The notes: generated from the sequence alone by a model not told the origin. A stretch of DNA of 48,495 nucleotides from Burkholderiales bacterium (GCA_036384015.1 DASVNF010000232.1:1-48495), one strand, 5' to 3'. Shown: positions 682 through 37,154, counted from the stretch's first letter. Numbers and translations: made by a program.

Positions 682-772
682 CCGTGACGAACGTGACGGC
701 GTGACGATCGTGGCGGGGCTCTGGAGCCGTCTTGTGCTGTTACGGCCGTCACGATCGTCACGTTCGTCACGG
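682..772. repeat. Hairpin repeat copy A (unit GTGACGA), between moxR stop and DUF58 start
   Basis: Left arm CCGTGACGAACGTGACGGCGTGACGATCGTG (682-712). Right arm CCGTCACGATCGTCACGTTCGTCACGG (746-772). Each arm has three GTGACG/CGTCAC units, and the outer 17 nt are perfectly complementary. Edges +/-3 nt. Confidence 0.7.
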
Positions 773-775
773 TCT

Positions 776-1756
776 TTAGACCCTCGGTGCCTGGACTTTT
801 TCCAGCAGCGCCTTGATCAGCGTGTCGCTGGTGTGGCCTTCGATCTCGAGTTCCGGCGCCGGCGTGACGCGATGCCTGAGCGCGGGCAGGGCCATGCGCT
901 TGACGTCGTCCGGGGTGGCGAAGCCCCGCCCTTCCATGAGGGCGCAGGCTCGGGCGGCGCGCACCAGCGCGATGCCGCCACGCGGTCCGGCGCCGGACGC
1001 GACGCCATTCCAGGTGCGGGTTGCGCGCACGACGCGCACGACATAGTCCTGCACGGCATCGTCCATGGCCACGGCCGCTGCCATGGCCTGCAGTCCGACC
1101 ACGTGCTGCGGCTGGATCAGGCTGCCGACCTGGTCGACGTTGAGTTTCTCGCCGACCTGGCTGGAGGTGATGCGCTTGAGCATCGCGACTTCCTCTTCCA
1201 GGGGCGGATAGTCGATGCGCACTTTCAGGAGGAAGCGGTCGAGCTGCGCTTCGGGCAGGGCGTAAGTGCCTTCCTGTTCGATCGGATTCTGGGTCGCCAG
1301 CACCATGAAGGGCGGCGCCAGCACATGCGACATGCCTTCGATGGTGACCTGTCCCTCCTGCATGACTTCGAGCAGCGCGGCCTGGGTCTTGGCGGGGGCC
1401 CGGTTGATTTCGTCGGCCAGCAGGAGCTGGGTGAACACCGGTCCGCGCCGTGTCGTGAATTCGCCGCTGCGCTGGTCATAGAGCGTATGGCCGGTGACGT
1501 CCGCCGGCATCAGGTCGGGCGTGAACTGGATGCGTGCGTAACTGCCGCCGAAGGTTTTCGCCAGTGCGCGCACCAGCAGCGTCTTGCCCAGGCCGGGCAC
1601 GCCTTCGATCAGCACATGGCCGCCGGCGAACAGCGCGGCCAGAACCTGGTCGACCGTCTCCTCCTGGCCGACCACGGCGCGCGCGATCTGCGTCCGCATC
1701 GCCGTGCCGATGTCGAAGGCCTGCTTGAGCTGCGAATCCGAGAGACTCGTTGTCAT
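776..1756 (-). CDS. MoxR-family AAA+ ATPase
   Basis: ORF 776..1918 trimmed to the ATG at 1756 (MTTSLSDSQLKQAFDIG...). Walker A GVPGLGKT and Walker B LLADEINR are present, with MoxR/AAA_3-like sequence throughout. ATGA overlap with the upstream gene stop at 1753-1756. Confidence 0.9.
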   Translation of the reverse strand: MTTSLSDSQLKQAFDIGTAMRTQIARAVVGQEETVDQVLAALFAGGHVLIEGVPGLGKTLLVRALAKTFGGSYARIQFTPDLMPADVTGHTLYDQRSGEFTTRRGPVFTQLLLADEINRAPAKTQAALLEVMQEGQVTIEGMSHVLAPPFMVLATQNPIEQEGTYALPEAQLDRFLLKVRIDYPPLEEEVAMLKRITSSQVGEKLNVDQVGSLIQPQHVVGLQAMAAAVAMDDAVQDYVVRVVRATRTWNGVASGAGPRGGIALVRAARACALMEGRGFATPDDVKRMALPALRHRVTPAPELEIEGHTSDTLIKALLEKVQAPRV

Positions 1757-2910
1757 CGTGTTTTCCTTGAGGGTACCCGCGCCTTGAGCGCGAGCTGTTC
1801 GTGCACTGCCTGGTAGAGACCGATCGCTTGCAGGAAATCCATCATCTTCGCCGCGTTGGCGGGGGCGAGCAGTTGCCGCACGCGCGGCTCGGGCCAGCCG
1901 AGGATTTCGGCCAGCCACCGCGGTCGTTCCGCGTCGGAAATCGCCAGGAAGTCAGGATGCGCCCGGGCGATGCGGCGCAGGCAGGAATCACGCGCGGCAT
2001 CGAGCATGCGTTGTGCGCCGCCGCTGGACCAGAGAAAGCGTCCGCTGGCGCGCAGGTGGTCGAGCAGCCGGCGGCGGTTGCGCGCCGGATCCGGGGCGAT
2101 GGGGCCGAGCCGCGGCGCAACGGACCAGAGCCACAGCAGCAGCAGAACGGCACCTCCCGCCAGCGGCGCCCAGGCATTTTCCTGCAGCCAGTCGCCGAGC
2201 GAGAGCCTGCCGGCGTTGCTGAACAGCAAAACCGGCCTGTCATCGGGAACGATCGAAACCATCTGCCAGAGGAACTGGGCGTGCTGTTCCTCGCCGATGG
2301 ACGGATTGAAGGCGAATTCCAGTTCGTTGAGAACCATGACCAGGCCGTTGCCATGCTCTACCAGCAGCAGGGCCTTGCCGGAGCCGTCGTCGAAATGGTA
2401 TTCGGCAGCCGGCGCCTCCAGGCGCATGCGTCGCGACAGTTGCACCCTCGAGGCCGAGTCGCTTCCCGGCAGCCTCACTTCGACCGGCTCGTTGGAATCC
2501 TTCGAGCCGCGCGGGCGCCTGACGGCATGACGCTGCACGCGCAGCGCCTCGAGCAGGGGATCGGATTGGCCGGGCGGCTCAGCCTCGACGATCAGGTACC
2601 CGCCGTTGGCGACCCACTCCAGGATATCCAGCTGCAACGACTGGCTCAGGATGGTCCGTCGCGCGGGCAGCACCAGGGTCGCCGGTGCCGGCAGGGTTCG
2701 CAGTTCCGGTATGGACCGCAGGGTCGAGGCCTTGGCGCCCAGGCGCAGCAGCAGGCGTTCCGCGGCGAGGAAAGGATTGCGCAGGGCAGGACCGCGATAT
2801 CCCGTATGCACGGTCTCCGTAACCTCCTCGAAATTCCTGAAGAACCAGGCCGCGCCCGCAGCGATTACGGCCAGCAACAGGACGCCGACGAGAACCTGGA
2901 CCCGGCTCAT
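1753..2910 (-). CDS. DUF4350-like membrane-anchored protein
   Basis: ORF 1753..3078 trimmed to MSRVQVLVGVLLLAVIAAGAAWFF... (ATG 2910), which gives an ATGA overlap with the upstream stop at 2907. N-terminal TM helix, a second TM (AVLLLLWLWSV) and a C-terminal helical region are typical of the DUF4350 member of MoxR/DUF58 clusters. Family call is from memory. Confidence 0.6.
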   Translation of the reverse strand: MSRVQVLVGVLLLAVIAAGAAWFFRNFEEVTETVHTGYRGPALRNPFLAAERLLLRLGAKASTLRSIPELRTLPAPATLVLPARRTILSQSLQLDILEWVANGGYLIVEAEPPGQSDPLLEALRVQRHAVRRPRGSKDSNEPVEVRLPGSDSASRVQLSRRMRLEAPAAEYHFDDGSGKALLLVEHGNGLVMVLNELEFAFNPSIGEEQHAQFLWQMVSIVPDDRPVLLFSNAGRLSLGDWLQENAWAPLAGGAVLLLLWLWSVAPRLGPIAPDPARNRRRLLDHLRASGRFLWSSGGAQRMLDAARDSCLRRIARAHPDFLAISDAERPRWLAEILGWPEPRVRQLLAPANAAKMMDFLQAIGLYQAVHEQLALKARVPSRKTR

Positions 2911-6038: not shown

Positions 6039-6060
6039 AGGGCGGGCTAACCTGGCCGTG

Positions 6061-10891: not shown

Positions 10892-11644
10892 CTAGTACGT
10901 CGCCCGCCCGCCGCTGATATCGAACACCCCGCCCGTGGTGAAGGAACACTCTTCCGAGCACATCCACGCGACCATCGCCGCGAGTTCGTCGGTGGTGCCC
11001 ATGCGGCCCATCGGCGTCTGCTCGAGGATGTAGTCCACCGTTTTCTGCGGGAACGACTTGACCATTTCCGTATGGACGGCCGTTGGCGTGATGCAGTTGA
11101 CGATGACGCCATCCTTCGCGAGATCCTTGCCCAGCGCCTTTGTAAATCCGATCACCGCCGCTTTCGACGTGGAATACGGCGTGAGCGACGGGTTGCCGTT
11201 CTTGCCGGCGATCGAGGCCAAATTGACGATGCGGCCGTACTTCTGCGCGATCATGACCGGGATTACCGCGCGGCTGCAGAGATAGACGCCGTCGACGTTG
11301 ACCGCCATGATCTTGCGCCACTCGTCGAGCGGGTACTCCCAGCTGCGGCGGACGATGCCGGAGACGCCGGCGTTGTTGACCAGGATGTCGATGCGGCCAA
11401 GGGTTTTGTGCGCCGTCGCTGCGGCGGATTCGACCTGCGATTCGTCTGCCACATCGACGACGGCGGTAGTAACCTTTCCCTTCGCCTGCAGGCGCATCGC
11501 CTGCTCCTCCAGGCCCTTCCGTTCCGTGTCCCACATCGCGACGGCGGCGCCGGAGTCGAGCAGGCGTTCGGTGATGGCGAGGCCGAGGCCGCGCGCGGCG
11601 CCGGTGACGATGGCGACCCGGCCTTTCAGATCGATGCTGTTCAT
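10892..11644 (-). CDS. SDR family oxidoreductase
   Basis: ORF 10892..12094 trimmed to MNSIDLKGRVAIVTGAARGLG... (ATG 11644). TGxxxGxG, NNAG and YxxxK (YSTSK) motifs are present. 250 aa. Confidence 0.9.
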   Translation of the reverse strand: MNSIDLKGRVAIVTGAARGLGLAITERLLDSGAAVAMWDTERKGLEEQAMRLQAKGKVTTAVVDVADESQVESAAATAHKTLGRIDILVNNAGVSGIVRRSWEYPLDEWRKIMAVNVDGVYLCSRAVIPVMIAQKYGRIVNLASIAGKNGNPSLTPYSTSKAAVIGFTKALGKDLAKDGVIVNCITPTAVHTEMVKSFPQKTVDYILEQTPMGRMGTTDELAAMVAWMCSEECSFTTGGVFDISGGRATY

Positions 11645-12288
11645 CAGAATTTTCCGAACTTGAGATAGGCTTCCTGCGGATCCATGCCGCCGAGGATCGC
11701 CTTGCGCACCGTGCTCTCGGTCTTGAGCACCTGCTCGGTCTTGGTCACCACTTCTTCCGCGATCCTGCCAGGGATGATCACCACGCCATCCCGATCGGCG
11801 AGCAACCAGTCGCCCGTGCTGATGGTGACGCCGCCGATGGTCAACGGCTCGCCGAACCGGTCCGGCACCCAGCGGCCGACGATGTCCGCCGGTGTGTTGA
11901 AGCTGCAGAAAACCGGAAATCCCAGCTTGAGGATGAAATCCGTGTCGCGGCAGCCGCCGTCCACGACATAGCCGAGCACGCCCTTGTGGTGCAGCGTCTC
12001 GGCGGACAATTCGCCCATCAGCGCGACCATGTGCGTGTTCGGCTGGCACACCATGACTTTTCCCGACGGCGCCTTCGACAGCAACCCGGTCCACTGCACC
12101 AGGGTGTCATGCGCGTCGCGGGTCTGGTCGATGAAGCCGCTGACGGTATAGATCTCGCCGGCCAGTTTCTTCGTCGGGTCGAGGGGCTTGATGGTGTGGG
12201 GCAGCACGCAGTTCGGGTGGCCCATTGCCCGCAGCACGTCGTGGACGGCGGCGGCGTAGCATTTTTCGAGTCTTTTCGTCAGATCCAT
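11644..12288 (-). CDS. RraA family protein (HMG/CHA aldolase-like)
   Basis: 214 aa. The blocks GELSAETLHHKGVLGYVVDGGCRDTD and GDWLLADRDGVVIIP are typical of the RraA/demethylmenaquinone-methyltransferase-like fold. Confidence 0.75.
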   Translation of the reverse strand: MDLTKRLEKCYAAAVHDVLRAMGHPNCVLPHTIKPLDPTKKLAGEIYTVSGFIDQTRDAHDTLVQWTGLLSKAPSGKVMVCQPNTHMVALMGELSAETLHHKGVLGYVVDGGCRDTDFILKLGFPVFCSFNTPADIVGRWVPDRFGEPLTIGGVTISTGDWLLADRDGVVIIPGRIAEEVVTKTEQVLKTESTVRKAILGGMDPQEAYLKFGKF

Positions 12289-12327
12289 ATTGTTTTTCTC
12301 CTCCAGATAGCTACTGCATGTCTACAT

Positions 12328-12366
12328 TTCACCGCGAAGGCGCAAAGGAAGGCGAGAAGACAATGG
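12328..12366. repeat. Hairpin-repeat left arm B (unit GCGAAGG/GCAAAGG); partner arm decayed or absent
   Basis: TTCACCGCGAAGGCGCAAAGGAAGGCGAGAAGACAATGG matches the left-arm architecture of copies C-H. Only a weak remnant (CGTGTTTGCGTGGATAGG, about 12470-12487) is seen where a right arm would be. Confidence 0.5.
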
Positions 12367-12901
12367 TACAGATTTCGGCGGTGCGGCGAATTCAAGGGCT
12401 CCACGCAATGGAACCGGAAAGACTATGCTGAATCAATATTGCAACTACCGGGCCTGGCGGGGCATCATCGTGTTTGCGTGGATAGGAGAGGGCATATCCA
12501 CTCGTCTTGATGACGATGACAAAAAACTGAAAGGCGGCACTAGTGTGCATAGGCTGACGCCTCACCACCGGTTCGAGAACAAAGCTGGATGGCGTTACGT
12601 ATAGGCGCAGCAATGGCTAACCTTCGGCCAAGCGTGACCAGCGTGCCTCACGCGAAGTAGTTCCCCGTCAGGTCGAAAACCAATTGCCCCCAGGCGCAGA
12701 GCATGCGGTCGGGAATGCGCCCATCCAGGAACTGTCCTCAAAAAATCCGTAAGCGATCTGTAATGCCCCTGCCGGTAGCTTGTCAGGGTCCGGTCGTGCG
12801 CACGCGATCGCTTGACGTAACCAGCGGTTTTCCGGGGATTTAGGGTTGGCCGGGCCCGTGGTTGCAGTGGATGGAAGAAGACTTCTCTAAAGAGGCCTCG
12901 G

Positions 12902-13204
12902 ATGAAATGGGTATGGACCTGGAGCGGCAAGTATTTCGGATACATCGATGGCGACAATCTCTGGACTTACGACGGGAAACACGTCGGACAACTTTCGGGT
13001 GACGAGATCTACGGGCCCGACGGCAGTTACCTCGGCGAAGTCATGAACAAGAACCGGCTGATTACAAACCGTGCGAAGAAATCGTCGCGCGGGCCGGTGT
13101 TCGTTCCGTACGAGAGGCGGGATGGCTTCGGCAAGTCCACGGATGACAATTGCTATCCGGTGTACCGGGACCATGAGGATTTTCCACCGTCTGAAAGGTT
13201 CTGA
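12902..13204 (+). CDS. Small hypothetical protein, possibly of the 4-fold beta-flower type
   Basis: 100 aa, with repeated G-x-hydrophobic-G / IYGxDGxYLGE hairpin-like motifs (GKYFGYIDGDNLWTYDGKHVGQLSGDEIYGPDGSYLGEV). It is the only plausible ORF in a lower-GC patch. Family assignment is from memory only. Confidence 0.4.
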   Translation: MKWVWTWSGKYFGYIDGDNLWTYDGKHVGQLSGDEIYGPDGSYLGEVMNKNRLITNRAKKSSRGPVFVPYERRDGFGKSTDDNCYPVYRDHEDFPPSERF

Positions 13205-13442
13205 GCGAAGCTATCCTCCATTGCGGATATAGCCCGCTTCTGCAATCTTTCGGCGGTATTCGAGTTCGCCAGACTTAAAATGCGGAATCCGGCGTATGCC
13301 GAACCGCAGTTCGTTTGGCGGATCGCCTGAGATCGTACGCTGTCCCTTCCTTTGGCCAGACCGGCCTATACTTTCCAGTAGGCTCGGGCCGTGTTCAACA
13401 GCGGCACAGAGTGTAGTGCCAAAACCTGATTGGAATCCGCCC

Positions 13443-13976
13443 ATGAGTGTTACGAGCATCCGGGAAGCCATTGAAAATGTCAGTGCTGCCATTTCCACCG
13501 ACCCCTCCAAGGCTCGATCGAAGAACGCGCCGGCAACGGCGCGCCTGACTGCCGGCCTGCAGTGCGAAGTAAGTGGCCCGCATAACGAACGCCTTGTCAC
13601 CGATATGCCCCCGGCGATGGGAGGGGCAGCTTCCGGTCCGAATCCCGGATGGCTGCTGCGGGGTGCGCTGGCTTCCTGTACCGCGACCGTCATTGCGATG
13701 CGAGCGGCGAAGCTCGGAATGGTTCTGAGCAGTCTCGAAGTCACGGTCGAAAGCGATTCCGACAACCGCGGCATCCTCGGACTCGACGAGGACGTCTCGG
13801 CGGGACTCGCGAGCGTGCGCATGAAAGTGAAGATCGGCGCGCCGGAAGCATCTCCCGCAACCCTGCGGGAAATCGTGGCATGGGCCGACGCCCATTCTCC
13901 GGTCGGGTGCACGATGAGGCAGGCACCGGGATGTTCGCTTGATGTCGAGGTCGTGAGTGTCGAGGATTCAAATTGA
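13443..13976 (+). CDS. OsmC family peroxiredoxin-like protein
   Basis: ORF 13296..13976 trimmed to MSVTSIREAIENV... (ATG 13443). GPNPGWLLRGALASCTATVI and HSPVGCTM carry the two conserved Cys of OsmC/Ohr-like proteins. Confidence 0.8.
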   Translation: MSVTSIREAIENVSAAISTDPSKARSKNAPATARLTAGLQCEVSGPHNERLVTDMPPAMGGAASGPNPGWLLRGALASCTATVIAMRAAKLGMVLSSLEVTVESDSDNRGILGLDEDVSAGLASVRMKVKIGAPEASPATLREIVAWADAHSPVGCTMRQAPGCSLDVEVVSVEDSN

Positions 13977-14021
13977 GCTGGCACGGCCAGGCGCCATGTA
14001 CCTGCATAGACGGATAAGCTC

Positions 14022-14825
14022 ATGAGTCCCCCTGCACCCTTCTTCCGCGAAGCTGGAACCGGTTCCGGTGTTGTCTGCATCCACTCGAACGCGAGCACCT
14101 CGGGACAGTGGCGGGGACTCATGGATCTGCTCTCTCCGAAGTTCCACGTCCTTGCGCCCGATTCCTACGGTTCCGGCAAGAGTCCGGAATGGCCGTCGGA
14201 TCGGACGATCACTCTTCGCGACGAAGTGGCGCTCATCGAGCCGGTGCTTGCCGAAGCCGGTTCACCGCTGGCGCTGGTGGGCCATTCCTATGGCGGGGGG
14301 GTCGCGTTGGTTGCGGCGGTGATGAATCCCGGGCGGATTCGCGCTCTGGCGCTGTACGAACCGACATTGTTTGCTCTCATCGAACAGCAGGGCCCGTCGC
14401 CGAATGATGCGGACGGCATTCGCAACACCGTGGCGAACGCCAGCGTCGCGCTGGATGCGGGGAACCAGGACACCGCAGCTGAGTATTTCATCGACTACTG
14501 GATGGGCGCCGGAGCCTGGAAGCAAACACCGGATGCCCGCAAGCCGGCGATCGCCGCTTCGGTTGCAAACGTGCGCCGGTGGAAGCACGCATTGTTCACC
14601 GAGCCCACGTCGCTGGAGACCTTCCGGTCGCTCGATATTCCGGTGCTCTACATGGTGGGGAAGCGTTCGACAGCCGCAGCGCATGGCGTGGCGCGTCTTC
14701 TGACGGCTGCGTTGCCGCGAGTGGAAGTCATGGAGTTCGAAAAGCTCGGTCACATGGGACCGATCACGCATCCGGACCCGGTGAATGAAGCCATCGCCCG
14801 TTTCCTGGAACGGACCTCCGGCTAA
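14022..14825 (+). CDS. Alpha/beta hydrolase
   Basis: 267 aa. Nucleophile elbow GHSYGG, HSNASTSGQW N-terminal block and C-terminal GHMGP histidine motif. Confidence 0.85.
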   Translation: MSPPAPFFREAGTGSGVVCIHSNASTSGQWRGLMDLLSPKFHVLAPDSYGSGKSPEWPSDRTITLRDEVALIEPVLAEAGSPLALVGHSYGGGVALVAAVMNPGRIRALALYEPTLFALIEQQGPSPNDADGIRNTVANASVALDAGNQDTAAEYFIDYWMGAGAWKQTPDARKPAIAASVANVRRWKHALFTEPTSLETFRSLDIPVLYMVGKRSTAAAHGVARLLTAALPRVEVMEFEKLGHMGPITHPDPVNEAIARFLERTSG

Positions 14826-15576: not shown

Positions 15577-17148
15577 ATGGATACGGATGTCCTGGTCGTC
15601 GGCGCCGGCCCGACCGGCCTGATGCTCGCCAATCAGCTTGTGCGCCGCGGCATCCGGGTGTTGATCATCGACCGGCATTCCGGACCGGCGCAGCAGAGCC
15701 GGGCGCTTGGTGTGCAATCGCGCACGCTCGAAATTTACGCAAAACTGGGGATCGACCAGAAAGCCATCCAGCTCGGCAAGATCGGCACGGGCGCGAATGT
15801 CTGGGCACGGGGTAAACGCATGGCCCGGGTTCCCCTTGGCGATGCCGGCAAGGCAGTAACGCCCTATCCCTACATCCTGATCCTGGGACAGGACGACAAC
15901 GAGTTCATCCTGGGTGAGCGGTTGCGCGGGCAGGGCATGGAGGTGCAGTGGAATACCGAGCTGATCGCACTGGACCAGAAGCCGGATCGCGTCGAAGCCA
16001 CGATCAAGCTGCCGGATGGTTCGTCACGCAATGTGGCTGCGGCCTGGATCGGAGGATGCGACGGCGCGCGCAGCGCGGTGCGCGAGCTGAACGGCATCAC
16101 TTTCCCGGGCGCGCCCTATGAGCATGTCTTCTTCGTTGCGGATACCGAGGCGACGGGATATATGGTGCCGGACGAAGTGAACGTCTACCTGCTCAAGGAA
16201 GGTTTCCATCTGCTGTTCCCGATGCGCGGCAAGGATCACTGGCGCGTCGTGGGCATCCTTCCGCCGGAATTGCGCAACAGGCCGGACCTGAAATTCGAGG
16301 AAGTGATTCCGGCGTTGCGCACGGAAGCCGGGTCGAATCTCGACTTCAAGGCCTGCTCCTGGTTCTCCACTTATCGCATCCATCATCGGGCCGCGTCCGA
16401 ATTCCGCAAGGGCCGCTGTTTTGTGCTCGGCGACGCCGCGCATGTCCACAGCCCGGTCGGGGCGCAGGGCATGAACACCGGCCTGCAGGATGCCTACAAC
16501 CTGGCCTGGAAGCTGGCACTGGTCGTGCAGGGCGGGGCCGATCCGGGATTGCTCGACACCTACCAGGAAGAGCGCCTCCCGATAGCGCAGCGCCTGTTGA
16601 ATACCACCGACCGCGGGTTCCAGCTTGCCGTATCCGGTAGTTCTTTAGCCGGGCTCTTCCGCACGCAGGTGATGGCCAGGATCGCCGCCGTACTGATGAG
16701 CCTGAAAGCGATCCAGAAAGTGGCTTTTCGCACCGTGTCCCAGACGGGCATCCACTATCGGTGGAGTTCCCTGTCCCGATCGATCGACGCTCCGGCCGGT
16801 GAAGCGCCCCAGGCAGGGGATCGTTTTCCGTGGCTGCACATAAGGTTTTCGAAGTCCGGTCCAGTCGAGGATTCATTCCAGAAGTTCGACGACAGGGCAT
16901 TCAACCTGGTGGTGATCGGGCAGCCTGCTCCCTCGGGAGATTCCGGGCTGGAAGAGTTGCTAACCGTCCATGCGATTCCGGAAGATCCGTTCAACGACAA
17001 GGAACTCGCGCGCGCGCAGATCCCGCGGCCATCCTTCTATCTTGTCCGGCCCGACGGCTATGTCGGGCTTTGCGGGGGGCGGGTTGATGCCGCGGCAATC
17101 TCGCGTTACGCCTCGGAGCGGCTGCGCACCGTGACGAGAAAGACCTAG
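15577..17148 (+). CDS. FAD-dependent aromatic-ring monooxygenase (PheA/TfdB-like)
   Basis: 523 aa. Motifs VLVVGAGPTGLMLA (GxGxxG), GDAAHVHSPVGAQGMNTGLQDAYNL and a C-terminal thioredoxin-like domain. GGGGAGGGG lies upstream of the ATG. Confidence 0.9.
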   Translation: MDTDVLVVGAGPTGLMLANQLVRRGIRVLIIDRHSGPAQQSRALGVQSRTLEIYAKLGIDQKAIQLGKIGTGANVWARGKRMARVPLGDAGKAVTPYPYILILGQDDNEFILGERLRGQGMEVQWNTELIALDQKPDRVEATIKLPDGSSRNVAAAWIGGCDGARSAVRELNGITFPGAPYEHVFFVADTEATGYMVPDEVNVYLLKEGFHLLFPMRGKDHWRVVGILPPELRNRPDLKFEEVIPALRTEAGSNLDFKACSWFSTYRIHHRAASEFRKGRCFVLGDAAHVHSPVGAQGMNTGLQDAYNLAWKLALVVQGGADPGLLDTYQEERLPIAQRLLNTTDRGFQLAVSGSSLAGLFRTQVMARIAAVLMSLKAIQKVAFRTVSQTGIHYRWSSLSRSIDAPAGEAPQAGDRFPWLHIRFSKSGPVEDSFQKFDDRAFNLVVIGQPAPSGDSGLEELLTVHAIPEDPFNDKELARAQIPRPSFYLVRPDGYVGLCGGRVDAAAISRYASERLRTVTRKT

Positions 17149-18029
17149 ACCGCGACAGGCGGCGCCTGCCGCATGCCGACAACGTGGTTCACGACCAGCG
17201 CGCCGATGACGATCCCGCCGCCCACCAGCGCGGCATTGCTCGGCCGTTCCCCGACGAACAACCAGGTCGACACCACGCCGAAGATGATCTCGAGGATGGT
17301 GATCAGCGCAATCTCCGCGGAAGACAGATGCGGCACGGCCAGCATGTACAGCAGCAGCCCCAAACCGAGCTGGATCACGCCCATCGTCGCCAGCAGTCCG
17401 AGGTCGCCCGCGCTCACGGTAAGAGGCAGGGCGAACGGCAGCGTCATGATCATTGAGAAAATTCCGGCAAGCAGTATGGAAGGGATGAGATCCAGCGTGG
17501 CATGGTGTTTCCGGAGCAGCACGACGTTGCAGGCGAAGGCGATGGGAATGCACAGCGCGATCAGGTTGCCCGTGCCGCCGCCCCCCGACAGCGAGTCATA
17601 GAACATCACGATGACGCCACCCAAGGCCGCGATCATCGCGAACCACGTGCGCGGCGCCACCGCTTCCCGAAGGAAAATCCTGGCAGCGAGCGCGGCGACG
17701 AAAGGCGAGATGCTGCCCAGCACCAGCGTGTTGGCTACGGTGGTGCGCGACAGTGCAAGGATGAAGGAAATGAACATCAGGGCGAACATCGCCCCCGACA
17801 TCACGCCCGGCCATCCCATTGCGCGGATGCGCTGGAACAGCCGGCCTCCATGCTGGAACGACAGCACGATCAGCAGGAAGACCGCCATGAACAACGAGCG
17901 CCAGAACGTGATCTTCCAGCCGTCGTGCACCTCCATGTTCCGCACCAGCACGCCGGCACTGGCCCAGCACACGCAGGCCCCGACGAGCAGGACTACGCCT
18001 TTTCTATGCTGCGCTATGGGCGAAGCCAT
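17145..18029 (-). CDS. DMT superfamily (EamA) transporter
   Basis: ORF 17145..18146 trimmed to MASPIAQHRKGVVLLVGACVCWASAGV... (ATG 18029). About 10 TM helices. The 39-aa ORF-track extension is a translation of repeat copy C. Confidence 0.85.
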   Translation of the reverse strand: MASPIAQHRKGVVLLVGACVCWASAGVLVRNMEVHDGWKITFWRSLFMAVFLLIVLSFQHGGRLFQRIRAMGWPGVMSGAMFALMFISFILALSRTTVANTLVLGSISPFVAALAARIFLREAVAPRTWFAMIAALGGVIVMFYDSLSGGGGTGNLIALCIPIAFACNVVLLRKHHATLDLIPSILLAGIFSMIMTLPFALPLTVSAGDLGLLATMGVIQLGLGLLLYMLAVPHLSSAEIALITILEIIFGVVSTWLFVGERPSNAALVGGGIVIGALVVNHVVGMRQAPPVAV

Positions 18030-18035
18030 GACTTC

Positions 18036-18218
18036 TTCACCGCAGAGGTGCGGAGGCGCAGAGAAGGACGCGCTGAGAAATACAACATGGGGATCTGAAA
18101 TTCGAAAAGTGGTGGGCCAATGGAGGTCTGCCGGGTGACCATGCATGCAATCCTTTCACCTGACACACATATTTTCTTTCTCTGCGTTTCCTCTGCGCCT
18201 CCGCGCCTCTGCGGTGAG
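18036..18218. repeat. Hairpin repeat copy C (units GCAGAGG/GCGGAGG)
   Basis: The left arm is TTCACCGCAGAGGTGCGGAGGCGCAGAGAAGGACGC.... The reverse complement of the right arm is CTCACCGCAGAGGCGCGGAGGCGCAGAGGAAACGCAGAGAAAG. About 26 of the first 27 nt are identical. The core is about 90 bp and unique. Confidence 0.8.
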
Positions 18219-18268
18219 ATCTAGGCGATTGCCTTGGGTGCGGCAACGCCGAGCTTCTCAATCCAGGG

Positions 18269-19282
18269 TTACAGCGACGGCAGGATGCTCGGGTAAAGCT
18301 CGATGCCTTCCTTCAATTGCTTCTCGCGGCGCCTCAATCCCGATTCGCCCGGAAGGCGGACGCGGTCGAAGCCGGGCCGCGGCGGCGTGGTGCGGCAGGC
18401 GTTCGCGATGTGTTCGGTCTGGCGGGTGAAATCTTCGATGCCGCCGAACAGCGCCGGGTCGAACACCTGCACGCAGACGTTTGCCGCCCAGCCTTCGATC
18501 GGATCCGCGCGGCCGTGGCCCGACAAACCCTGGGTCAGCGCTTCAACCAATAGTCCGAGCGCGTAGCCCTTGTGGCCGTGATCGAGGCCGCCGATCGGCA
18601 GCAAACCGCCCTTGGGCTCATTGAATACCACCGCGGGATCGTCGGAAGGAATGCCGTGGCCATCCAGCACCCACTGGCCAGGGAGCTTGCGGCCTTCCTT
18701 GTTCAACCGGCCGGTCAGCCCATGCGTGGTGATGGACATGGAGACATCGATCATCACCGGATCGCCCCTGGTGGGCCATCCCGCGGCAATCGGGTTCGGC
18801 GTGTGGGTGCCCGTTCCCTTGCCGCCGTGCGGAACCACGCCGCCCACTTCCGGCCCGGACGAAATCACCATCACCATCATGCCTTGATCGGTGACGCGTT
18901 TGAGGTACGCGGCGAGGCAGGCGATGTGATGGCTGCGGCGGATGGCGACCGTGCAGGTGCCGTATTTCTTGGCACGCTCGAGCGCCATGTCGATCGCCTT
19001 CGCGGTCAGCCACGTTCCGGGCAGACGCATGCCGTCCCATGTCACCGCCGCCGGAAAGTCCGCGATGACCTTCGGCGCCCCGGTTTTGGTCATGCCGCCT
19101 CTCTCCAGATCGTTCAGATAGGGCGCAAGCAATTGCAGGCCGTGGGTGGAATGTCCAAGCAGATCGCCCTCGACCAGGATCTCGGCAACGATTTTCGATT
19201 TGTCGGATTCGAGTCCTGCCTTGTCGAGCAGGCCGGTGGCGAAGCGCACGAGCTCTTCGGCTTGGTAGCGTTGTGTTGTCAT
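18269..19282 (-). CDS. Ldh_2 family (malate/L-lactate/ureidoglycolate-type) dehydrogenase
   Basis: 337 aa. The blocks GHSTHGLQLLAPYL, IRRSHHIACLAAY and GLDHGHKGYALG are typical of the Ldh_2 family. Confidence 0.85.
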   Translation of the reverse strand: MTTQRYQAEELVRFATGLLDKAGLESDKSKIVAEILVEGDLLGHSTHGLQLLAPYLNDLERGGMTKTGAPKVIADFPAAVTWDGMRLPGTWLTAKAIDMALERAKKYGTCTVAIRRSHHIACLAAYLKRVTDQGMMVMVISSGPEVGGVVPHGGKGTGTHTPNPIAAGWPTRGDPVMIDVSMSITTHGLTGRLNKEGRKLPGQWVLDGHGIPSDDPAVVFNEPKGGLLPIGGLDHGHKGYALGLLVEALTQGLSGHGRADPIEGWAANVCVQVFDPALFGGIEDFTRQTEHIANACRTTPPRPGFDRVRLPGESGLRRREKQLKEGIELYPSILPSL

Positions 19283-19294
19283 TATCTAGATCTT

Positions 19295-19406
19295 TTCACC
19301 GCAGAGGCTGGATCGGACCACCGAGTATGCGGCAGCCGATTATCTCCTGCCCATTTCCAGGCTTTTCTCTGCGTAACCTCTGCGCCCTCGCGCCTCTGCG
19401 GTTAGG
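19295..19406. repeat. Hairpin repeat copy D (left arm truncated to 14 nt)
   Basis: Left arm is TTCACCGCAGAGGC only. Right arm is full: CTTTTCTCTGCGTAACCTCTGCGCCCTCGCGCCTCTGCGGTTAGG. Confidence 0.65.
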
Positions 19407-21408: not shown

Positions 21409-21603
21409 TTAACCGCAAAGGCGTGAAGGCGCAAAGAAGACCACGCAAAGGAGAGCAACATCGGAGGACGGATTCGATGCCACTTATTGCCGCTGAGGGA
21501 CAAAGTTCGAGATAGGCTCCGCGAACTGTTCACGGTCGATGTCCGAAATTTCGCTTTCCGTTTTCCTTTGCGCTTCCTTTGCGCCTTCGCGCCTTTGTGA
21601 GAG
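21409..21603. repeat. Hairpin repeat copy E (units GCAAAGG/GTGAAGG)
   Basis: The left arm is TTAACCGCAAAGGCGTGAAGGCGCAAAGAAGACCACGCAAAGGAGAGC. The reverse complement of the right arm is CTCTCACAAAGGCGCGAAGGCGCAAAGGAAGCGCAAAGGAAAAC. The right arm ends at the stop codon of the downstream flavoprotein gene. Confidence 0.8.
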
Positions 21604-22770
21604 TTAGACGACCTGGCCCGCGGCAAAGCCGGAGGCCCAGGCCCACTGGAAGTTGTAGCCGCCGAGGTGGCCGGTGACGTCGACGACTTCGCCGATGAAG
21701 TACAGCCCCGGCTGGTTGCGGGCCTCCATGGATTTCGAGGAAAGCTCGCGGGTGTCGACGCCGCCTAGAGTCACCTCGGCCTTCTTGTAGCCGACCGTGC
21801 CGCTTGGCCGGATGCGCCAGTCGTGCAGGCGGGTTGCGATCTCGCGCAGGCGGGGCATGTTGAATCGCTTGACGGGCTGGTTCTGGAAATTGGATTCGAC
21901 CCAGCGTTGCGCGAAGCGCTGCGGCAGGAATTCACCCAGCACGTTGGCGAGGAGTTTTTCCGAATCCTGCGCGGCTTCGAGCAATGCCGAGGCATCTTGA
22001 TCGGGCAGCAGGTTGATCGAAATGTCCTGGCCGTGGCGCCAGTACGAGGAGATCTGCAGGATGGCCGGGCCGGACAGGCCGCGATGGGTGACCAGCAGGT
22101 TTTCGCGAAAGCTCGCGCCGTTGCAACTGACCACGGCGTCGAACGAGAGGCCGGAGAGGTCCTCGAACTGCTTCAATTCGGCGGGGGCGAACGTGAGTCC
22201 GACCAGCGCGGGATGCAGTTCGGTAACATTGAGGCTGAACTGTTCCGCAATGCGATAGCCGAACGGGCTGGCGCCGATCTGCGGAATCGACAGTCCGCCG
22301 CTGGCGATGACCAGGGACTGGCAATCGAATGCGCCACGATCCGTGGCGACTTTGAACCGCACGCTTTTTTCGACAGAATTCACCTTCGCCGGCATGCACC
22401 ATTGCACGCCCGCGGCGTCGCACTCGGCCTTCAGCATGTCGATGATCTGCTGCGCGGAGCCGTCGCAGAACAACTGGCCGAGTTTTTTCTCGTGCCAGGC
22501 GATCCCATGCTTTTCCACAAGTGCGATGAAATCGCGGGGCGTGTAGCGCGCCAGCGCGGAACGGCAGAAATCGGGATTCGCGGACAGGAAGTTCTCAGGC
22601 CGTGCGCCGGTATTGGTGAAGTTGCAGCGTCCGCCGCCGGAGATGCGGATTTTCTCACCCAGTTTTCCGGCGTGATCGATCAACAGCACACGGCGTCCGC
22701 GTTTTCCCGCTTCGATCGCGCACATCATGCCGGCTGCCCCGGCGCCGATGATGATGACTTCGGCGCTCAC
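21604..22770 (-). CDS. BaiN/RdsA (HI0933/YhiN-like) FAD flavoprotein
   Basis: ORF 21604..22923 trimmed to the GTG at 22770 (VSAEVIIIGAGAAGMMCAIEAGKRG...). GGGRCNFTN motif and C-terminal GEVVDVTGHLGGYNFQWAW. Confidence 0.85.
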   Translation of the reverse strand: MSAEVIIIGAGAAGMMCAIEAGKRGRRVLLIDHAGKLGEKIRISGGGRCNFTNTGARPENFLSANPDFCRSALARYTPRDFIALVEKHGIAWHEKKLGQLFCDGSAQQIIDMLKAECDAAGVQWCMPAKVNSVEKSVRFKVATDRGAFDCQSLVIASGGLSIPQIGASPFGYRIAEQFSLNVTELHPALVGLTFAPAELKQFEDLSGLSFDAVVSCNGASFRENLLVTHRGLSGPAILQISSYWRHGQDISINLLPDQDASALLEAAQDSEKLLANVLGEFLPQRFAQRWVESNFQNQPVKRFNMPRLREIATRLHDWRIRPSGTVGYKKAEVTLGGVDTRELSSKSMEARNQPGLYFIGEVVDVTGHLGGYNFQWAWASGFAAGQVV

Positions 22771-24658: not shown

Positions 24659-24671
24659 TCAGATCAAAGTC

Positions 24672-24829
24672 CATCACAGAGATACAGAGGATACAGAGGA
24701 AACCAAAGTGGATCGAAAAGCGAATGACACAGTACGCATTTTGCGACCCCGTCAATCGTGATGCCGCTCAAACGCCAGTTAGTTGTTCCCCGTTCTCGCC
24801 TTCAGTTTTTCTCTGTGTCGTCTGTGAGG
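24672..24829. repeat. Hairpin repeat copy F (unit ACAGAGG)
   Basis: The left arm is CATCACAGAGATACAGAGGATACAGAGGAAACC. The reverse complement of the right arm is CCTCACAGACGACACAGAGAAAAAC. AGATCTAAG, which contains the coxL stop codon, follows directly. Confidence 0.7.
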
Positions 24830-24834
24830 AAGAT

Positions 24835-27802: not shown

Positions 27803-27813
27803 GGCATTATGCC

Positions 27814-27861
27814 CAACGCAAAGCGTTGCGACCTTCGCGTTCTTCGCGCCTTGCGTTGAGG
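27814..27861. repeat. Compact hairpin-repeat copy I (unit GCAAAGG/GCGAAG) in the coxS-coxM spacer
   Basis: CAACGCAAAGCG pairs with CGCCTTGCGTTG. The right arm CCTTCGCGTTCTTCGCGCCTTGCGTTGAGG has the same unit style as copy H. There is no separate core. Confidence 0.45.
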
Positions 27862-29594: not shown

Positions 29595-29612
29595 ATGTGG
29601 GACCTACACCCT

Positions 29613-29762
29613 TTCACCGCAGAGGCGCAGAGGACGCAGAGAAAAACCAATGACAATACGTGAGACGTCGTATTGGCACACCGGCAGGCAAGCGCCTGCC
29701 ACGAGCGTTGAACCAGTCTGACCCTGGATCTTGTTTTCCTCTGTGTCCTCTGTGCGTGGTGG
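29613..29762. repeat. Hairpin repeat copy G (unit GCAGAGG / ACAGAGG)
   Basis: The left arm is TTCACCGCAGAGGCGCAGAGGACGCAGAGAAAAACCAA. The reverse complement of the right arm is CCACCACGCACAGAGGACACAGAGGAAAACAAG. The core contains two further perfect 7-bp hairpins (29654-29675 and 29683-29700). Confidence 0.8.
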
Positions 29763-29782
29763 ATGGAAAGATGCAGAAGGGT

Positions 29783-29816
29783 GAAAAAAAAGCCCCGGCA
29801 AGCCGGGGCTTTTTTG
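29783..29816. terminator. Bidirectional intrinsic terminator
   Basis: An A-run, then stem AGCCCCGG (29791-29798), loop CAAG, stem CCGGGGCT (29803-29810), then a T-run. It lies between the convergent coxD transcript and the 40-aa gene. Confidence 0.8.
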
Positions 29817-29832
29817 GTGTGTTCCGGGTGGA

Positions 29833-29955
29833 TTACTTGTACTTCGCCCAGAGTTCCTCATTGAGTTTCGCCTGTTCCTTGCCGAGAGACATCACCCAGT
29901 AGAGGCAGCCGATGACGACGGTGAGCGGACCCAGAAGCAGAATTGCGGAAGTCAT
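29833..29955 (-). CDS. Small membrane protein, 40 aa (below ORF-track cutoff)
   Basis: The reverse-strand translation is MTSAILLLGPLTVVIGCLYWVMSLGKEQAKLNEELWAKYK*. TAGGAGT lies 7 nt upstream of the ATG. The gene has GC-rich third positions. The strong terminator starts 17 nt after its stop. Confidence 0.6.
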   Translation of the reverse strand: MTSAILLLGPLTVVIGCLYWVMSLGKEQAKLNEELWAKYK

Positions 29956-30116
29956 GCCTTGTTACTCCTATTTTTGGGAAGAGTCGCCGAAGGTCGCGAC
30001 AGGCTAAGCGGAGCTTTTGGCTCGGGCCTGAATAAGACCGGGAAGCACGGCGGCGGCGAATGATACCCGATACGCGGACGGAAGTTGCTGCAGTTTGTTA
30101 CGGCAGGGTGAGCCCC

Positions 30117-30303
30117 CAACCGCAAAGGCGCGAAGACGCAAAGGGGTCGCAAAGAAAGGCAATGAAAACCGGGAAGGAGCGCGGATCATCATTCGCGCGA
30201 CTATTGTCGCTGGTGGAATAAAACTCACGCAGACTACCCATCACGCCGTTTTTTTTGTCCTCCTGTGCGCTTCCTTCGCGTCCTTTGCGCCTTTGCGGTG
30301 AGG
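30117..30303. repeat. Hairpin repeat copy H (units GCAAAGG/GCGAAG)
   Basis: The left arm is CAACCGCAAAGGCGCGAAGACGCAAAGGGGTCGCAAAGAAAGGCAATG. The reverse complement of the right arm is CCTCACCGCAAAGGCGCAAAGGACGCGAAGGAAGCGCACAGGAGGAC. The right arm ends 6 nt before the stop of the DpgC-like gene. Confidence 0.8.
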
Positions 30304-30309
30304 TTGACT

Positions 30310-31728
30310 CTAAAGCTTGCGGCTCTTGGCGTTCCAGTGCATTTCGAGGTTGGAGATCAGCGCCGGGCTGAAATGGCAGTAGGCCTGTTCGAGCGCGTAG
30401 GTGGCGAAGTAACGGCGGAACAGGTCGAGGGGCTCCTGGGATACGCGCATGGCGCGCCGGTTCGAGGCCGAGCTGACGACGCCCGACCCGGTGAAATTTT
30501 CGACTACACGGTCGATCGCCGCATCCATGTCGCCGGGGTCGACGATTTCATCGCAGATCAGCATGCCTTCCGGGCTGTCGCATTCGAGCCGGCGCTGGTA
30601 CATGATCGCCTGGCGTGCGATGCGTTCACCCGTGAAGCGGGGCAGGCGCATGTTGGCCGCGCCGGGGATGATGCCTTCCTTGCGCGCGGGCAAGCTGAGA
30701 AACGCACCGCGCGCGGCCAGTACATAGTCCATGGTCAGCAGGTACTGGCAGTGCCCGCCGATGGCGAACTCCTCCACCACGCTGATCCAGGGTTTTTCGA
30801 TGGTCTGTCCGTGGACGTCGTCGGGCACCATGTTTTCACGCGCCACGCCGCGGTAGAACTTGTTGACGATGCCCAGGTCGCGCTGCAGGTACCAGATGAA
30901 TGGGATCTTGCCGTAGTAAAGGTGCGTCAGGTTGATGCCGCTGCCGAGCATGCGACGGCCGTCGTACTTGCCCCCTTGCACAGGGTCACCGCGCAACACG
31001 CCGATCTGCGTGTCGGGATCGAGGATCGCGATGTCGACCGCGATTTCCGCCGCATCGATCGTGGTGTCGTCTTCTGCGTTCAGGTGGCGCGGATTCTTCT
31101 GGATCACATAGGCAGCGTTGCCTTTGCGGAAAATCTCGGCCGCGCCGAGGTCCAGCCGGCCGCTGCCGCGGAATTCGGGCAGCCGTTCGATCGCCTCCGG
31201 GCGGGGCAGCAGCATGGCGTGGCAAAGGTGCATTCCCGTCTCGGCGTTGGCCAGCACGCTGCTGACGAAGATGCCCTGGTCGATCTCGAACCCGTCCTTG
31301 TCACGCTGCATCAGCGCCGATTCGATGTCGACCTGGGCCTGGGTGGGGGTCAACCCCGGGACCAGGGCGGCGGCGTCATAAATAAGGTTCTCGACGCGCA
31401 CGAACTTTGAACGGTTGCGCGTGAGCTTGTCGTAGACCACCATCGCATGCGCGCGAAGGAAGGCGGTGCGCGCCTCGCGCGCAACCCGCTTGATCTGCTC
31501 CGCGGCTTCCGCCTGCAAGGCGTCGCGCGCGGGCTTCGCCGGCAGCCTCGCCAGGATCTGTGCGCTGGTCTGCCAGAAACGGGAATAACGAATGCAATCG
31601 CCGGCGAAATCGGCGGTATCGGCCGGGGCCGTCGCATGCCAGGCTTCGATCGCGTCATCGCTGATCTGCGCACGGCGCAGGCTTTCGGTTTCCTGAACGA
31701 GGGGTTTGATTGCGGGTGCCGCCACCAT
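30310..31728 (-). CDS. Crotonase-fold protein resembling DpgC, the cofactor-independent (3,5-dihydroxyphenyl)acetyl-CoA 1,2-dioxygenase
   Basis: 472 aa. An N-terminal helical region of about 200 aa precedes an enoyl-CoA hydratase-like core. That core includes LNAEDD...AVDIAILD...GVLRG, GSGINL, KPWISVVEEFAIGGHCQYLL and SLPARKEGIIPGAANMRL. The domain layout and motifs match my recollection of DpgC. AAAGGAG overlaps the paaK stop. Confidence 0.55.
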   Translation of the reverse strand: MVAAPAIKPLVQETESLRRAQISDDAIEAWHATAPADTADFAGDCIRYSRFWQTSAQILARLPAKPARDALQAEAAEQIKRVAREARTAFLRAHAMVVYDKLTRNRSKFVRVENLIYDAAALVPGLTPTQAQVDIESALMQRDKDGFEIDQGIFVSSVLANAETGMHLCHAMLLPRPEAIERLPEFRGSGRLDLGAAEIFRKGNAAYVIQKNPRHLNAEDDTTIDAAEIAVDIAILDPDTQIGVLRGDPVQGGKYDGRRMLGSGINLTHLYYGKIPFIWYLQRDLGIVNKFYRGVARENMVPDDVHGQTIEKPWISVVEEFAIGGHCQYLLTMDYVLAARGAFLSLPARKEGIIPGAANMRLPRFTGERIARQAIMYQRRLECDSPEGMLICDEIVDPGDMDAAIDRVVENFTGSGVVSSASNRRAMRVSQEPLDLFRRYFATYALEQAYCHFSPALISNLEMHWNAKSRKL

Positions 31729-31736
31729 TGCTCCTT

Positions 31737-33044: not shown

Positions 33045-33075
33045 TGCGCCTTCCTCCTGGCGTGGAGCCGGTAGT

Positions 33076-34182: not shown

Positions 34183-34246
34183 GACGCTTGTGCTGGCTGG
34201 CTATACTGCAAAAACGCATGGTACCCGAACGCACTCCTGTCCCCGC

Positions 34247-36138: not shown

Positions 36139-36513
36139 GGGGTATCCGGAAGCCCTTCTTATACGTACACGGATATCGTGACAATCGATGCCGTAAAACG
36201 CGATAAGCCTAAACGGTTTCCGCGCCCAGTTCCAGCAAAACGCGGGCCCGGTGAGCGGCGCGCGTTGAAGGGAATACGAGGCAGTTGCGAACTCATCCAG
36301 CATTCTCGGTGTGCCGGCGGCACTTCCGTTTCGAGAGTTTTTTTCTTGCCCAAGTCATCGCTCGATGCCCTGCTCGACCGCCGCATGGCGTCACTTTTGC
36401 GCGCGATCTGATTTGCATCGGCACGCGTTGCCCGCCATCGAGGATGTCTTCCGCGGGGGGCTGCGCATCGAAGCCTGCAAGGGGCGCCTGCGGGATGCCG
36501 AGCCCGGACGAGG

Positions 36514-36542
36514 TTGACTTGATCGAAATGGTTTCCTATACT
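36514..36542 (+). promoter_or_regulatory. Sigma70-type promoter of the rubrerythrin operon
   Basis: TTGACT (36514-36519), a 17-nt spacer, then TATACT (36537-36542), about 100 nt upstream of the rubrerythrin ATG. Confidence 0.55.
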
Positions 36543-36552
36543 CAATTTACAG

Positions 36553-36569
36553 ATTAGATTTAGTCTAAT
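36553..36569. promoter_or_regulatory. Palindromic operator candidate overlapping the predicted transcription start
   Basis: In ATTAGAtttagTCTAAT the 6-nt arms are perfect reverse complements. It also reads as a 7-1-7 element, TTAGATT-t-AGTCTAA (6/7), and fits T-N11-A. It starts 11 nt after the -10 box. Confidence 0.4.
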
Positions 36570-36639
36570 TCCTGTTCCGAAGACGGCTCCCTTGGGAGCG
36601 CCGGATCCAGCATTAATATGTAAAATCAAGGAGGTCAAC

Positions 36640-37062
36640 ATGAAAGCACTAAAGGGGTCCAAGACTGAAACCAGCCTGAAGGAAGCGTTCGCAGGCGAAT
36701 CCCAGGCGAACCGCCGTTACCTCTACTTCGCAGCGAAGGCCGATGTGGAAGGCCAGAACGACGTCGCGGCAATCTTCCGTTCCACCGCGGAGGGCGAAAC
36801 CGGCCATGCCCACGGCCACCTTGAATATCTCGAGACGGTCGGCGACCCGGCCACGGGACTGCCCATCGGCAAGTCGCGGGAAAACCTCAAGGCCGCGATC
36901 GCCGGCGAGACCCACGAGTACACCGACATGTATCCCGGCATGGCCAAGAATGCGCGTGACGAAGGCTTCGACGAAATCGCCGACTGGTTCGAGACGCTGG
37001 CGAAAGCCGAACGCTCCCATGCCAACCGTTTCCAGAAGGCCCTCGACGCCCTGGCCGACTGA
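36640..37062 (+). CDS. Rubrerythrin-family diiron protein (no rubredoxin domain)
   Basis: ORF 36592..37062 trimmed to [27 protein letters not shown]... (ATG 36640), with AAGGAGG upstream. ExxH pairs [10 protein letters not shown] and ERSHANRF. 140 aa. Confidence 0.85.
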
Positions 37063-37065
37063 TTT

Positions 37066-37154
37066 CCTGTGAAGGGTTCCTGTGAAGGTTTAAAGTGAAG
37101 GGGGAAGGGTTCAGGCTTCCCCCGGAATCGTATTCGCCCCTTCACGCCTTCATC
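37066..37154. repeat. Hairpin repeat copy J (unit GTGAAGG) between rubrerythrin and the Fe-S gene
   Basis: Left arm is CCTGTGAAGGGTTCCTGTGAAGGTTTAAAGTGAAGGGGGAAGGG. Right arm is CGCCCCTTCACGCCTTCATCAG. An inner perfect 8-bp hairpin is formed by GGGGGAAG (37100-37107) and CTTCCCCC (37116-37123). Confidence 0.55.

Follow-up and report, generated by a model that had tools for sequence, protein, structure and literature searches.

The stretch of Burkholderiales bacterium DNA analysed here (GCA_036384015.1 DASVNF010000232.1:1-48495; 48,495 nucleotides (nt), hereafter the window) contains ten copies of a dispersed hairpin repeat in the spacers between its genes. We consider the chances about even that these copies are gene-less, non-autonomous members of a family of foldback cassettes of the type of ribosomal RNA (rRNA) intervening sequences (IVS), placed just after stop codons. 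Elements with the same architecture are spread over many bacterial phyla; they lie close to stop codons, and the class of their arms is linked to the gene that longer elements carry. They persist vertically with constrained arms, and are occasionally gained, lost or nested in one another.

A first-pass annotation of the sequence had listed ten copies. Eight of these are found as hairpins, one as a solo arm (B), and the last (J) is weak and degenerate. In the following list, z-scores compare the minimum free energy of folding with 100 dinucleotide-preserving shuffles per copy, and E-values refer to a foreign-arm profile (nhmmer) built solely from 168 arms of other genomes.

Copy A, 680-777: arms 682-706 and 747-772, 24/25 positions paired, loop of about 40 nt, GTGACGR units, z -7.7; occupies the whole spacer of two genes on the minus strand (start codon 672, stop 776).
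Copy B, 12327-12366: solo left arm TTTCACCGCGAAGGCGCAAAGGAAGGCGAGAAG, partner arm absent, z +0.1, E 1.5e-4; upstream of an RraA-like gene (11644-12288, minus strand).
Copy C, 18036-18218: arms 18037-18089 and 18168-18217, 43/50 paired, GCAGAGG/GCGGAGG units, z -8.0; flanked by the ancestral Ldh_2 stop (TAG, 18222-18224) and the EamA start codon (18029-18027).
Copy D, 19294-19404: three-unit right arm (19375-19404), left arm reduced to a single unit (19294-19308), z -2.7; in the Zn-ADH/Ldh_2 spacer.
Copy E, 21409-21603: arms 21416-21452 and 21564-21597, 32/33 paired, GCAAAGG/GTGAAGG units, z -5.6; a stop codon at 21604 directly adjoins its right end.
Copy F, 24670-24830: ACAGAGG units (TCACAGAGATACAGAGGATACAGAGG), 18/19 paired, z -3.8; between a coxL-like stop (24835) and the coxE start (24658).
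Copy I, 27811-27861: compact, left arm truncated (27811-27824), right arm of three units (27832-27861), terminus AACGC...GCGTTGAGG, z -4.2; in the spacer of Fer2_2 (coxS-like) and FAD_binding_5 (coxM-like) genes.
Copy G, 29612-29762: left arm of three GCAGAGG units (29612-29647), right arm of the ACAGAGG type (29733-29762), paired core 29625-29647/29733-29755 with 20/23 positions, z -6.8, E 2e-8; begins 18 nt past an AAA gene stop (29594).
Copy H, 30117-30303: arms 30119-30169 and 30248-30299, 40/51 paired, GCAAAGG/GCGAAG units, z -6.3; ends about 10 nt from a stop codon at 30310.
Copy J, 37066-37154: degenerate, left arm of three GTGAAGG units, right arm of about two complementary units, z -2.7; in the spacer of a rubrerythrin gene and a CCG-domain gene.

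Arms in the window are 20-50 nt long and 78-97% paired, and each has three to four units. As the annotation had described, they are built of about three tandem purine-rich units of 8-9 nt, and the loops are unrelated, with only 7-8-nt matches in common, which is the chance level. At least five unit types occur among the copies (GCAGAGG, GCAAAGG, ACAGAGG, GTGAAGG and GTGACGA). The G.T pairs in copy G arise because a GCAGAGG left arm faces a right arm of the ACAGAGG type. A definition of the family by architecture, i.e. tandem-unit arms, unrelated loops and an intergenic position, therefore holds. The stems claimed for the copies fold with z-scores down to -8; as hairpins, D, J and the solo arm B are weak. 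That the elements lie on the + strand, as also claimed, is uninformative, since a hairpin shows its purine arm first on both strands. Independently of the listed coordinates, the window contains five ungapped inverted repeats (18 nt or longer, complementary at 85% or more of positions, within 250 nt), compared with 0.23 in shuffled sequences, and four of the five are listed copies. All copies lie in spacers of ordinary metabolic operons, between protein-coding genes: E, D and C before and within an SDR/Zn-ADH/Ldh_2/EamA run, F, I and G in a cox-type cluster. They start 0-18 nt past the upstream stop codon and often finish a few bases short of the next start. A profile scan of the window detected no further copies.

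The same arms are found far outside this genome. Among the matches listed, the 21-nt arm pattern TTCACCGCAGAGGNGCRGAGG occurs in more than 119 genome stretches, compared with about 2 expected by chance (19.5 specified bases, 596 Gb, both strands). According to the record titles, these matches represent about 14 phyla, with the following groups: Acidobacteriota, Planctomycetota, Pseudomonadota (alpha, beta and gamma), Desulfobacterota-type deltaproteobacteria, Binatia, Gemmatimonadota, Bacteroidota, Chloroflexota, Verrucomicrobiota, Goldiibacteriota, Sumerlaeota, Abditibacteriaceae, FCPU426 and Spirochaetes. Matches and comparative loci are mostly metagenome-assembled genomes; the cultured isolates Bacteroides finegoldii, Gemmatirosa kalamazoonensis and Sphingomonas parapaucimobilis have the same arrangement. 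A complementary partner arm is present for 66/124 arms, which yields elements of 64-230 nt or, in a minority, of 435-500 nt. Element lengths are bimodal, at 59-233 nt and 430-650 nt, with a loop gene in the long versions. Conversely, with the foreign-arm profile, B, C, D, G and H of the window are recovered at E <0.1, and the hits to E, F and I are weak; nothing else in the window matches, and A and J are missed. The idea of a genome-specific repeat without known relatives has to be given up, as the same arms occur in about 14 phyla and usually flank GxxExxY and four-helix-bundle genes (see below).

The fine anatomy was measured on 120 paired elements. The termini follow the consensus (A/T)TTCACC(G/A)C...G(C/T)GGTGAA(A/T), and the unit reads R0 C1 n2 G3 A4 G5 r6 n7 with a period of 8 nt in 149 cases and of 9 nt in 73. 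The core GYRRAGG of the first-pass annotation came close; the better description is R-C-r-G-A-G-r plus one to two spacer bases. From position 0 to 7, the paired fractions are 0.96, 0.99, 0.74, 0.95, 0.99, 0.97, 0.70 and 0.81. Mismatches hence gather at the degenerate purines (positions 2 and 6) and in the spacer, which fits a motif kept independently on both arms; a stem kept for pairing alone would scatter its mismatches evenly. One end lies within 20 nt of a stop codon in 62/120 elements, where random placement would give about 10, and among the operons that harbour elements are housekeeping ones, e.g. cox, fab and radA. On the right, the flank is rich in A (at +1 in 88% and at +2 in 76% of elements).

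The elements are not only gene-less hairpins. Loops of the 435-500-nt elements encode GxxExxY proteins (TIGR04256/PF13366, PD-(D/E)XK nuclease superfamily; E 1e-41 to 1e-46). In a survey of 80 metagenome genes picked by protein similarity alone, of which 78 were testable, 51/78 have complementary tandem-unit arms at most 130 nt away; 39 of these genes lie within the loop and 12 between two hairpins. Their arms consist of RCRGAG-type units, and the protein has 125 amino acids. An element from Verrucomicrobiales carries a four-helix-bundle gene (TIGR02436/PF05635, '23S rRNA-intervening sequence protein'; E 8e-28 and 3.5e-22). Four further four-helix-bundle genes from a protein search all have tandem-unit arms. 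Genes of this family are located in the related elements L097 and L213-L218. GTGA-type arms accompany 5/5 four-helix-bundle genes and 0/51 GxxExxY genes (Fisher p 2.6e-7; the five proteins are mutually related). Cargo family and arm class are thus linked. By the criterion of unit class, copies B-I belong to the GxxExxY-type class, and A and J resemble the four-helix-bundle class; the unit class of copy A also resembles a tandem GTGACRA run in one relative of the window (L203). Within the annotation's list, A (GTGACGA) and J (GTGAAGG) are of another unit class than B-I. With respect to the upstream host gene, the cargo gene has the same orientation in 19 cases, the opposite one in 2, and converges in 5. 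One element of 126 nt still contains about 20 codons from the start of a GxxExxY gene, from which it follows that at least some short copies are deletion derivatives.

Both cargo families are very large: all 8,000 candidates scored passed the threshold. A sequence comparison of GxxExxY with PDB found no relative, an AlphaFold model is too poor to use (predicted local distance difference test score, pLDDT, of 47), and neither family is among the defence systems listed in PADLOC. In two proteobacterial genomes (L214 and L218, 1-1366), GTGAAG arms flank a four-helix-bundle gene located between genes for an SNF2-family helicase and a DUF4391 protein, a neighbourhood that may be of restriction or defence type; the left arm overlaps the end of the helicase open reading frame (ORF).

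Relatives of the window allow us to follow individual spacers. The SDR/ADH/Ldh_2/EamA run occurs in eight metagenomic taxa in which Ldh_2 is 82-92% identical; we refer to the ADH-to-Ldh_2 spacer as the D-site and to the Ldh_2-to-EamA spacer as the C-site. All C-sites examined are occupied, with an orthologous element in L200-L204, L208 and L211. All D-sites examined are occupied (L200, L202, L203, L209 and L210) except that of L212, which is the closest relative by Ldh_2 (90-92% identity) and lacks the element in a spacer of 67 nt; at this site, one such taxon stands against six other occupied ones. Between SDR and ADH, the window has no element, L203 and L204 have a solo tandem run, and L200 has a full element. 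Unit types vary by taxon (GCAGAGG, ACAGAGG, ACGAAGG and GCAAAGG) and loops are mostly unalignable, and at the D-site the arms are identical over 19 + 31 nt in three taxa whose four-fold sites of the adjacent gene are 53-58% identical. The unusual terminus of these three, ACGC...GCGTTGAGA, recurs in a fourth taxon, in which the units have shifted from GCAAAGG to GCAGAGG on both arms. The C-site element common to L201 and L208 is 86% identical (spacer), compared with 65% at four-fold sites of the flanking gene; it shows a single compensatory exchange (C:G to G:C), has an arm interrupted by a 32-nt insertion, and is nested in the remains of an older element. Nested copies are also present in L001 (3555-3790) and L042 (353-690), and a GCAAAGG element can lie inside the loop of a GCAGAGG element. 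The best DNA match to the window is a Solibacteraceae metagenome-assembled genome at 77% identity; in a genome of this kind (L109), the spacer of copy J holds a GCAGAGG-type element with different units. The elements are thus old residents with constrained arms and free loops, and turnover, nesting, gain and loss are occasional.

In place of the D-site element, L212 has a short GC-rich hairpin at 170-236 (CCCTCTCC...GGAGAGGG), followed by the purine-rich run GCAGAAGAGCAAGAGCAAA; this hairpin may be left over from an element or may be the forerunner of one. In the locus L098 (6031-7064), three to four elements follow one another in tandem, and one of them carries GxxExxY.

The annotation could not place these repeats among described elements, and in Rfam this holds: at the gathering threshold, a transfer RNA (tRNA) gene at 45103-45176 (RF00005, 63 bits) is the sole match of the whole window. 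At E up to 5, the region 17.9-30.4 kb yields no family for the elements, its hits being terminator-like or microRNA-hairpin noise; the weak leader and small-RNA matches there are due to a terminator at 29786-29817. Eleven related loci, scanned at E up to 0.1, gave no match to the elements. The open-access literature was searched for an account of the dispersed family and yielded none; the curators of the GxxExxY and four-helix-bundle families may have noted flanking repeats. In the wider literature, a published element is built alike, the IVS of the Coxiella burnetii 23S rRNA, which is 428 nt long, has a 28-bp terminal stem and is excised by RNase III (PMC4990558). Its loop holds an ORF for S23p, a four-helix-bundle protein, and its 5' region comprises two or three tandem GACAGAT heptamers and one GACAGAA, in strain-variable number; the 5' cut of RNase III is at the start of the first repeat (PMC4990558). 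The sporadic distribution of IVSs suggests horizontal transfer, and their origin is unresolved, a mobile-element origin being long suspected (PMC4990558). Like IVSs of the Coxiella/Leptospira type, the window copies have terminal inverted repeats that form a long stem, and they share with the Coxiella IVS the tandem purine-rich short repeats in the 5' arm (period here 8 or 9). Elsewhere, elements related to those of the window carry the same PF05635 family between tandem-unit arms. Unlike IVSs, the window copies lie between protein genes and not in rRNA helices 9, 25 or 45 (there is no rRNA gene in the window), they contain no S23p or four-helix-bundle ORF, and most of them belong to the class whose cargo is a PD-(D/E)XK nuclease. 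RNase III cleavage is demonstrated for the Coxiella IVS; for the window copies, it is suggested by analogy.

Under the explanation we favour, each arm is an inverted array in which an 8-9-nt motif occurs three to four times, and there are two classes: one with the motif R-C-r-G-A-G-r, the termini TTCACC...GGTGAA and the GxxExxY PD-(D/E)XK nuclease as cargo, the other with the motif GTGA(A/C)G and the four-helix-bundle '23S rRNA intervening-sequence' protein as cargo. A full-length member possesses one small loop gene, oriented with the host operon. By analogy with the rRNA case, transcribed stems would probably be cut by RNase III, a processing that would let an insertion reside in a transcription unit without destroying it. 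Proteins of the cargo type would maintain or mobilise copies in trans via the repeated motif, and gene-less copies would arise by loss of the cargo gene.

Several results weigh against this explanation. The 48.5-kb window contains no gene for GxxExxY, a four-helix-bundle protein, an IS200/RAYT-like protein or another transposase, which leaves the trans-acting factor hypothetical for this genome, and a search of the window loops revealed no cargo-gene remnants. In 86 elements, no direct-repeat signal of a target-site duplication was detected, whatever the offset or length, which leaves transposition without a direct trace. GxxExxY proteins are 63.1% identical within an arm-unit subtype and 62.4% between subtypes (p 0.09), i.e. 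protein and subtype do not co-vary, and the four-helix-bundle sample consists of five related proteins. GxxExxY occurs in 8/72,556 plasmid records and in no phage record; with this rarity on plasmids and absence from phages, the spread between phyla is not accounted for. For a purely selfish resident copy, moreover, the conservation of arms at fixed loci is unexpected. Finally, an RNA stem on the transcribed strand should show more G.U than A.C mismatches, and we observed 42 versus 36 relative to the cargo gene (p 0.57) and 42 versus 42 relative to the upstream host gene. The lack of a G.U excess speaks against strong selection on a messenger RNA (mRNA) stem and fits a constraint on unit positions at the level of the motif. 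The mismatch test leaves one expectation unchanged: given what is established about RNase III, a near-perfect stem of 25-50 bp should be a substrate of this enzyme once it is transcribed.

The main rival to the cassette explanation draws on this very conservation at fixed loci. It regards the elements as host cis-elements, intercistronic RNA or DNA structures selected for mRNA processing, 3'-end protection, termination or insulation, in which the cargo genes have lodged secondarily. The occupation of C-site and D-site in all relatives examined (bar the D-site of L212), arms that are 100% conserved where synonymous sites are near saturation, and one entire spacer that has changed far less than the four-fold sites beside it are what one would expect of adopted host structures, and so are the contact with stop codons and the location inside the cox, fab and radA operons. 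Nevertheless, we consider this rival improbable: the sense strand has no G.U bias, the stem lacks a U-run and continues into GGTGAA(A/T) at its right flank, and mismatches concentrated at degenerate motif positions are easier to reconcile with a sequence motif than with pairing alone. Nested copies, tandem arrays, solo arms and the presence/absence case resemble mobile DNA, and a near-identical motif in 14 phyla would need one shared host factor. The motif-level constraint leads to another reading, which overlaps with both the cassette and the cis-element explanations: the arms could be inverted arrays of binding sites for a protein that binds duplex or cruciform DNA (cf. gyrase or IHF at bacterial interspersed mosaic elements (BIMEs), or subterminal transposon repeats), and the hairpin would be incidental. 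R0, C1, G3, A4 and G5 are kept and 95-99% paired, positions 2 and 6 differ between arms, G.T and A.C mismatches are symmetric, and the unit class tracks the cargo family. As there is no co-variation of protein and unit subtype within the GxxExxY class, the 8-9-bp period is off the helical repeat, and the published IVS homologue is processed as RNA, this reading appears quite unlikely to us.

A family of repetitive extragenic palindromes (REPs), or of their REPIN doublets, moved by a REP-associated tyrosine transposase (RAYT; an IS200-like Y1 transposase) is already largely refuted, and we give it very little credence. REPs are defined by a GTAG or CGTC tag at one end of a 20-40-bp palindrome (PMC3733652). 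The resemblance is real: the window copies too are extragenic palindromes downstream of genes, between genes that are convergent or have the same direction, and REPs, too, are non-autonomous, may depend on a protein whose gene lies elsewhere, and have persisted vertically for a long time (PMC3733652). At one locus in Sumerlaeota (L078, 1986-2516), the perfect 22-nt inverted repeat AGCCCTGAAAGGGCGAAAGGAT encloses a gene for an IS200-like Y1 transposase (NF033573, E 1.5e-17); these repeats are of different sequence, and the pair looks like a RAYT/REP system distinct from the hairpin-cassette family. The window elements, by contrast, end in TTCACC...GGTGAA and not in a GTAG or CGTC tag, their arms are tandem arrays of 25-50 nt and not one conserved palindrome, copies of one genome differ in sequence while one motif extends across about 14 phyla, and the associated genes are PF13366 and PF05635, not HUH Y1 transposases. 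As no RAYT gene is present in the window either, the annotation was right to set the repeats apart from REP and BIME. Chance inverted repeats or simple-sequence slippage in GC-rich spacers would suit the weak hairpins of D, J and B; given the excess of inverted repeats over shuffles, z-scores down to -8, the recovery of window copies by a profile from other phyla, and more than 119 exact pattern matches where about 2 are expected, the probability of this explanation is practically negligible.

Other repeat families resemble the elements in part. Miniature inverted-repeat transposable elements (MITEs) share the terminal inverted repeats and the presence/absence polymorphism between relatives, but no target-site duplication was detected here in the 86 elements; longer versions that might correspond to a parent element exist, but their GxxExxY or four-helix-bundle gene is no known transposase. 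Correia elements, the MITEs of Neisseria, have a TA target duplication and are restricted to one genus. They resemble the window elements in being 100-150 bp long and intergenic with terminal inverted repeats, and their transcripts fold into hairpins that are bound or cleaved by RNase III, altering the expression of neighbours (PMC2649163). They differ in their conserved core; the elements described here have unrelated loops and internally tandem arms, and no duplication was found. Correia elements are the nearest analogue in mode of action, with RNase III acting on co-transcribed hairpins. The foldback (FB) transposons of Drosophila have long inverted arms of tandem short repeats and a variable, unrelated centre. 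Being eukaryotic, far larger, and unrelated in sequence and proteins, they offer an analogy of architecture only.

Two further origins of the hairpins were tried and rejected. Insertion into pre-existing hairpins is not general, complementary outer flanks being present in 12% of elements versus 2% of controls. Intrinsic terminators differ as well, since no U-run follows the stem and the right flank is A-rich. A true terminator, the bidirectional aaaaaagccccggcaagccggggctttttt at 29786-29817 between copies G and H, looks different; it adjoins a minus-strand ORF of about 40 codons (region 29786-29957).

Some copies have conspicuous surroundings. Just past solo arm B, the region 12366-14122 has a lower GC content (0.585) and contains a beta-flower-domain ORF (12902-13204; PF21784, E 1e-6) and an unannotated ORF of 303 amino acids (13211-14122); this stretch may be of foreign origin and would then have displaced the partner arm. 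Next to copy C, Ldh_2 has an in-frame TAA at 18269-18271, and homologues of 352-354 amino acids continue for 16 codons to the TAG at 18222-18224; the internal TAA reflects a nonsense mutation or else a sequencing error. A distance of 4 nt separates the ancestral stop from the copy. On the other side, an ORF call (17145-18146, minus strand) extends spuriously through a copy C arm (...SAPPHLCGEEV) ahead of the true EamA start at 18029. At many loci, the arms yield such recurrent false peptides in ORF calls (SAPLRLCGE, LCASAV).

Since about 1990, it has been an unsettled question where rRNA intervening sequences come from and what they are for. Here, the family supplies a candidate source population for them, together with genome-wide, non-rRNA copies on which ideas can be tested. 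We tentatively advance a wider proposal, though on present evidence we would sooner doubt it than rely on it: one unnamed class of foldback cassettes with TTCACC...GGTGAA termini and arms of a tandem 8-9-nt motif may pervade bacteria, as the source of ORF-bearing 23S IVSs, as the native context of PF13366 and PF05635, and with gene-less copies as durable, sequence-constrained occupants of operon spacers, maintained by those proteins in a second partnership of the REPIN/RAYT kind that relies on different enzymes. A model of the family would clean the annotation in many phyla, where the arms create spurious ORFs and repeated pseudo-peptides. The GxxExxY and four-helix-bundle families, both uncharacterised, would gain a defined DNA or RNA partner motif, enabling biochemistry. 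Furthermore, arms that are conserved beside saturated synonymous sites bear on the question of whether palindromic repeats are parasites or have been domesticated.

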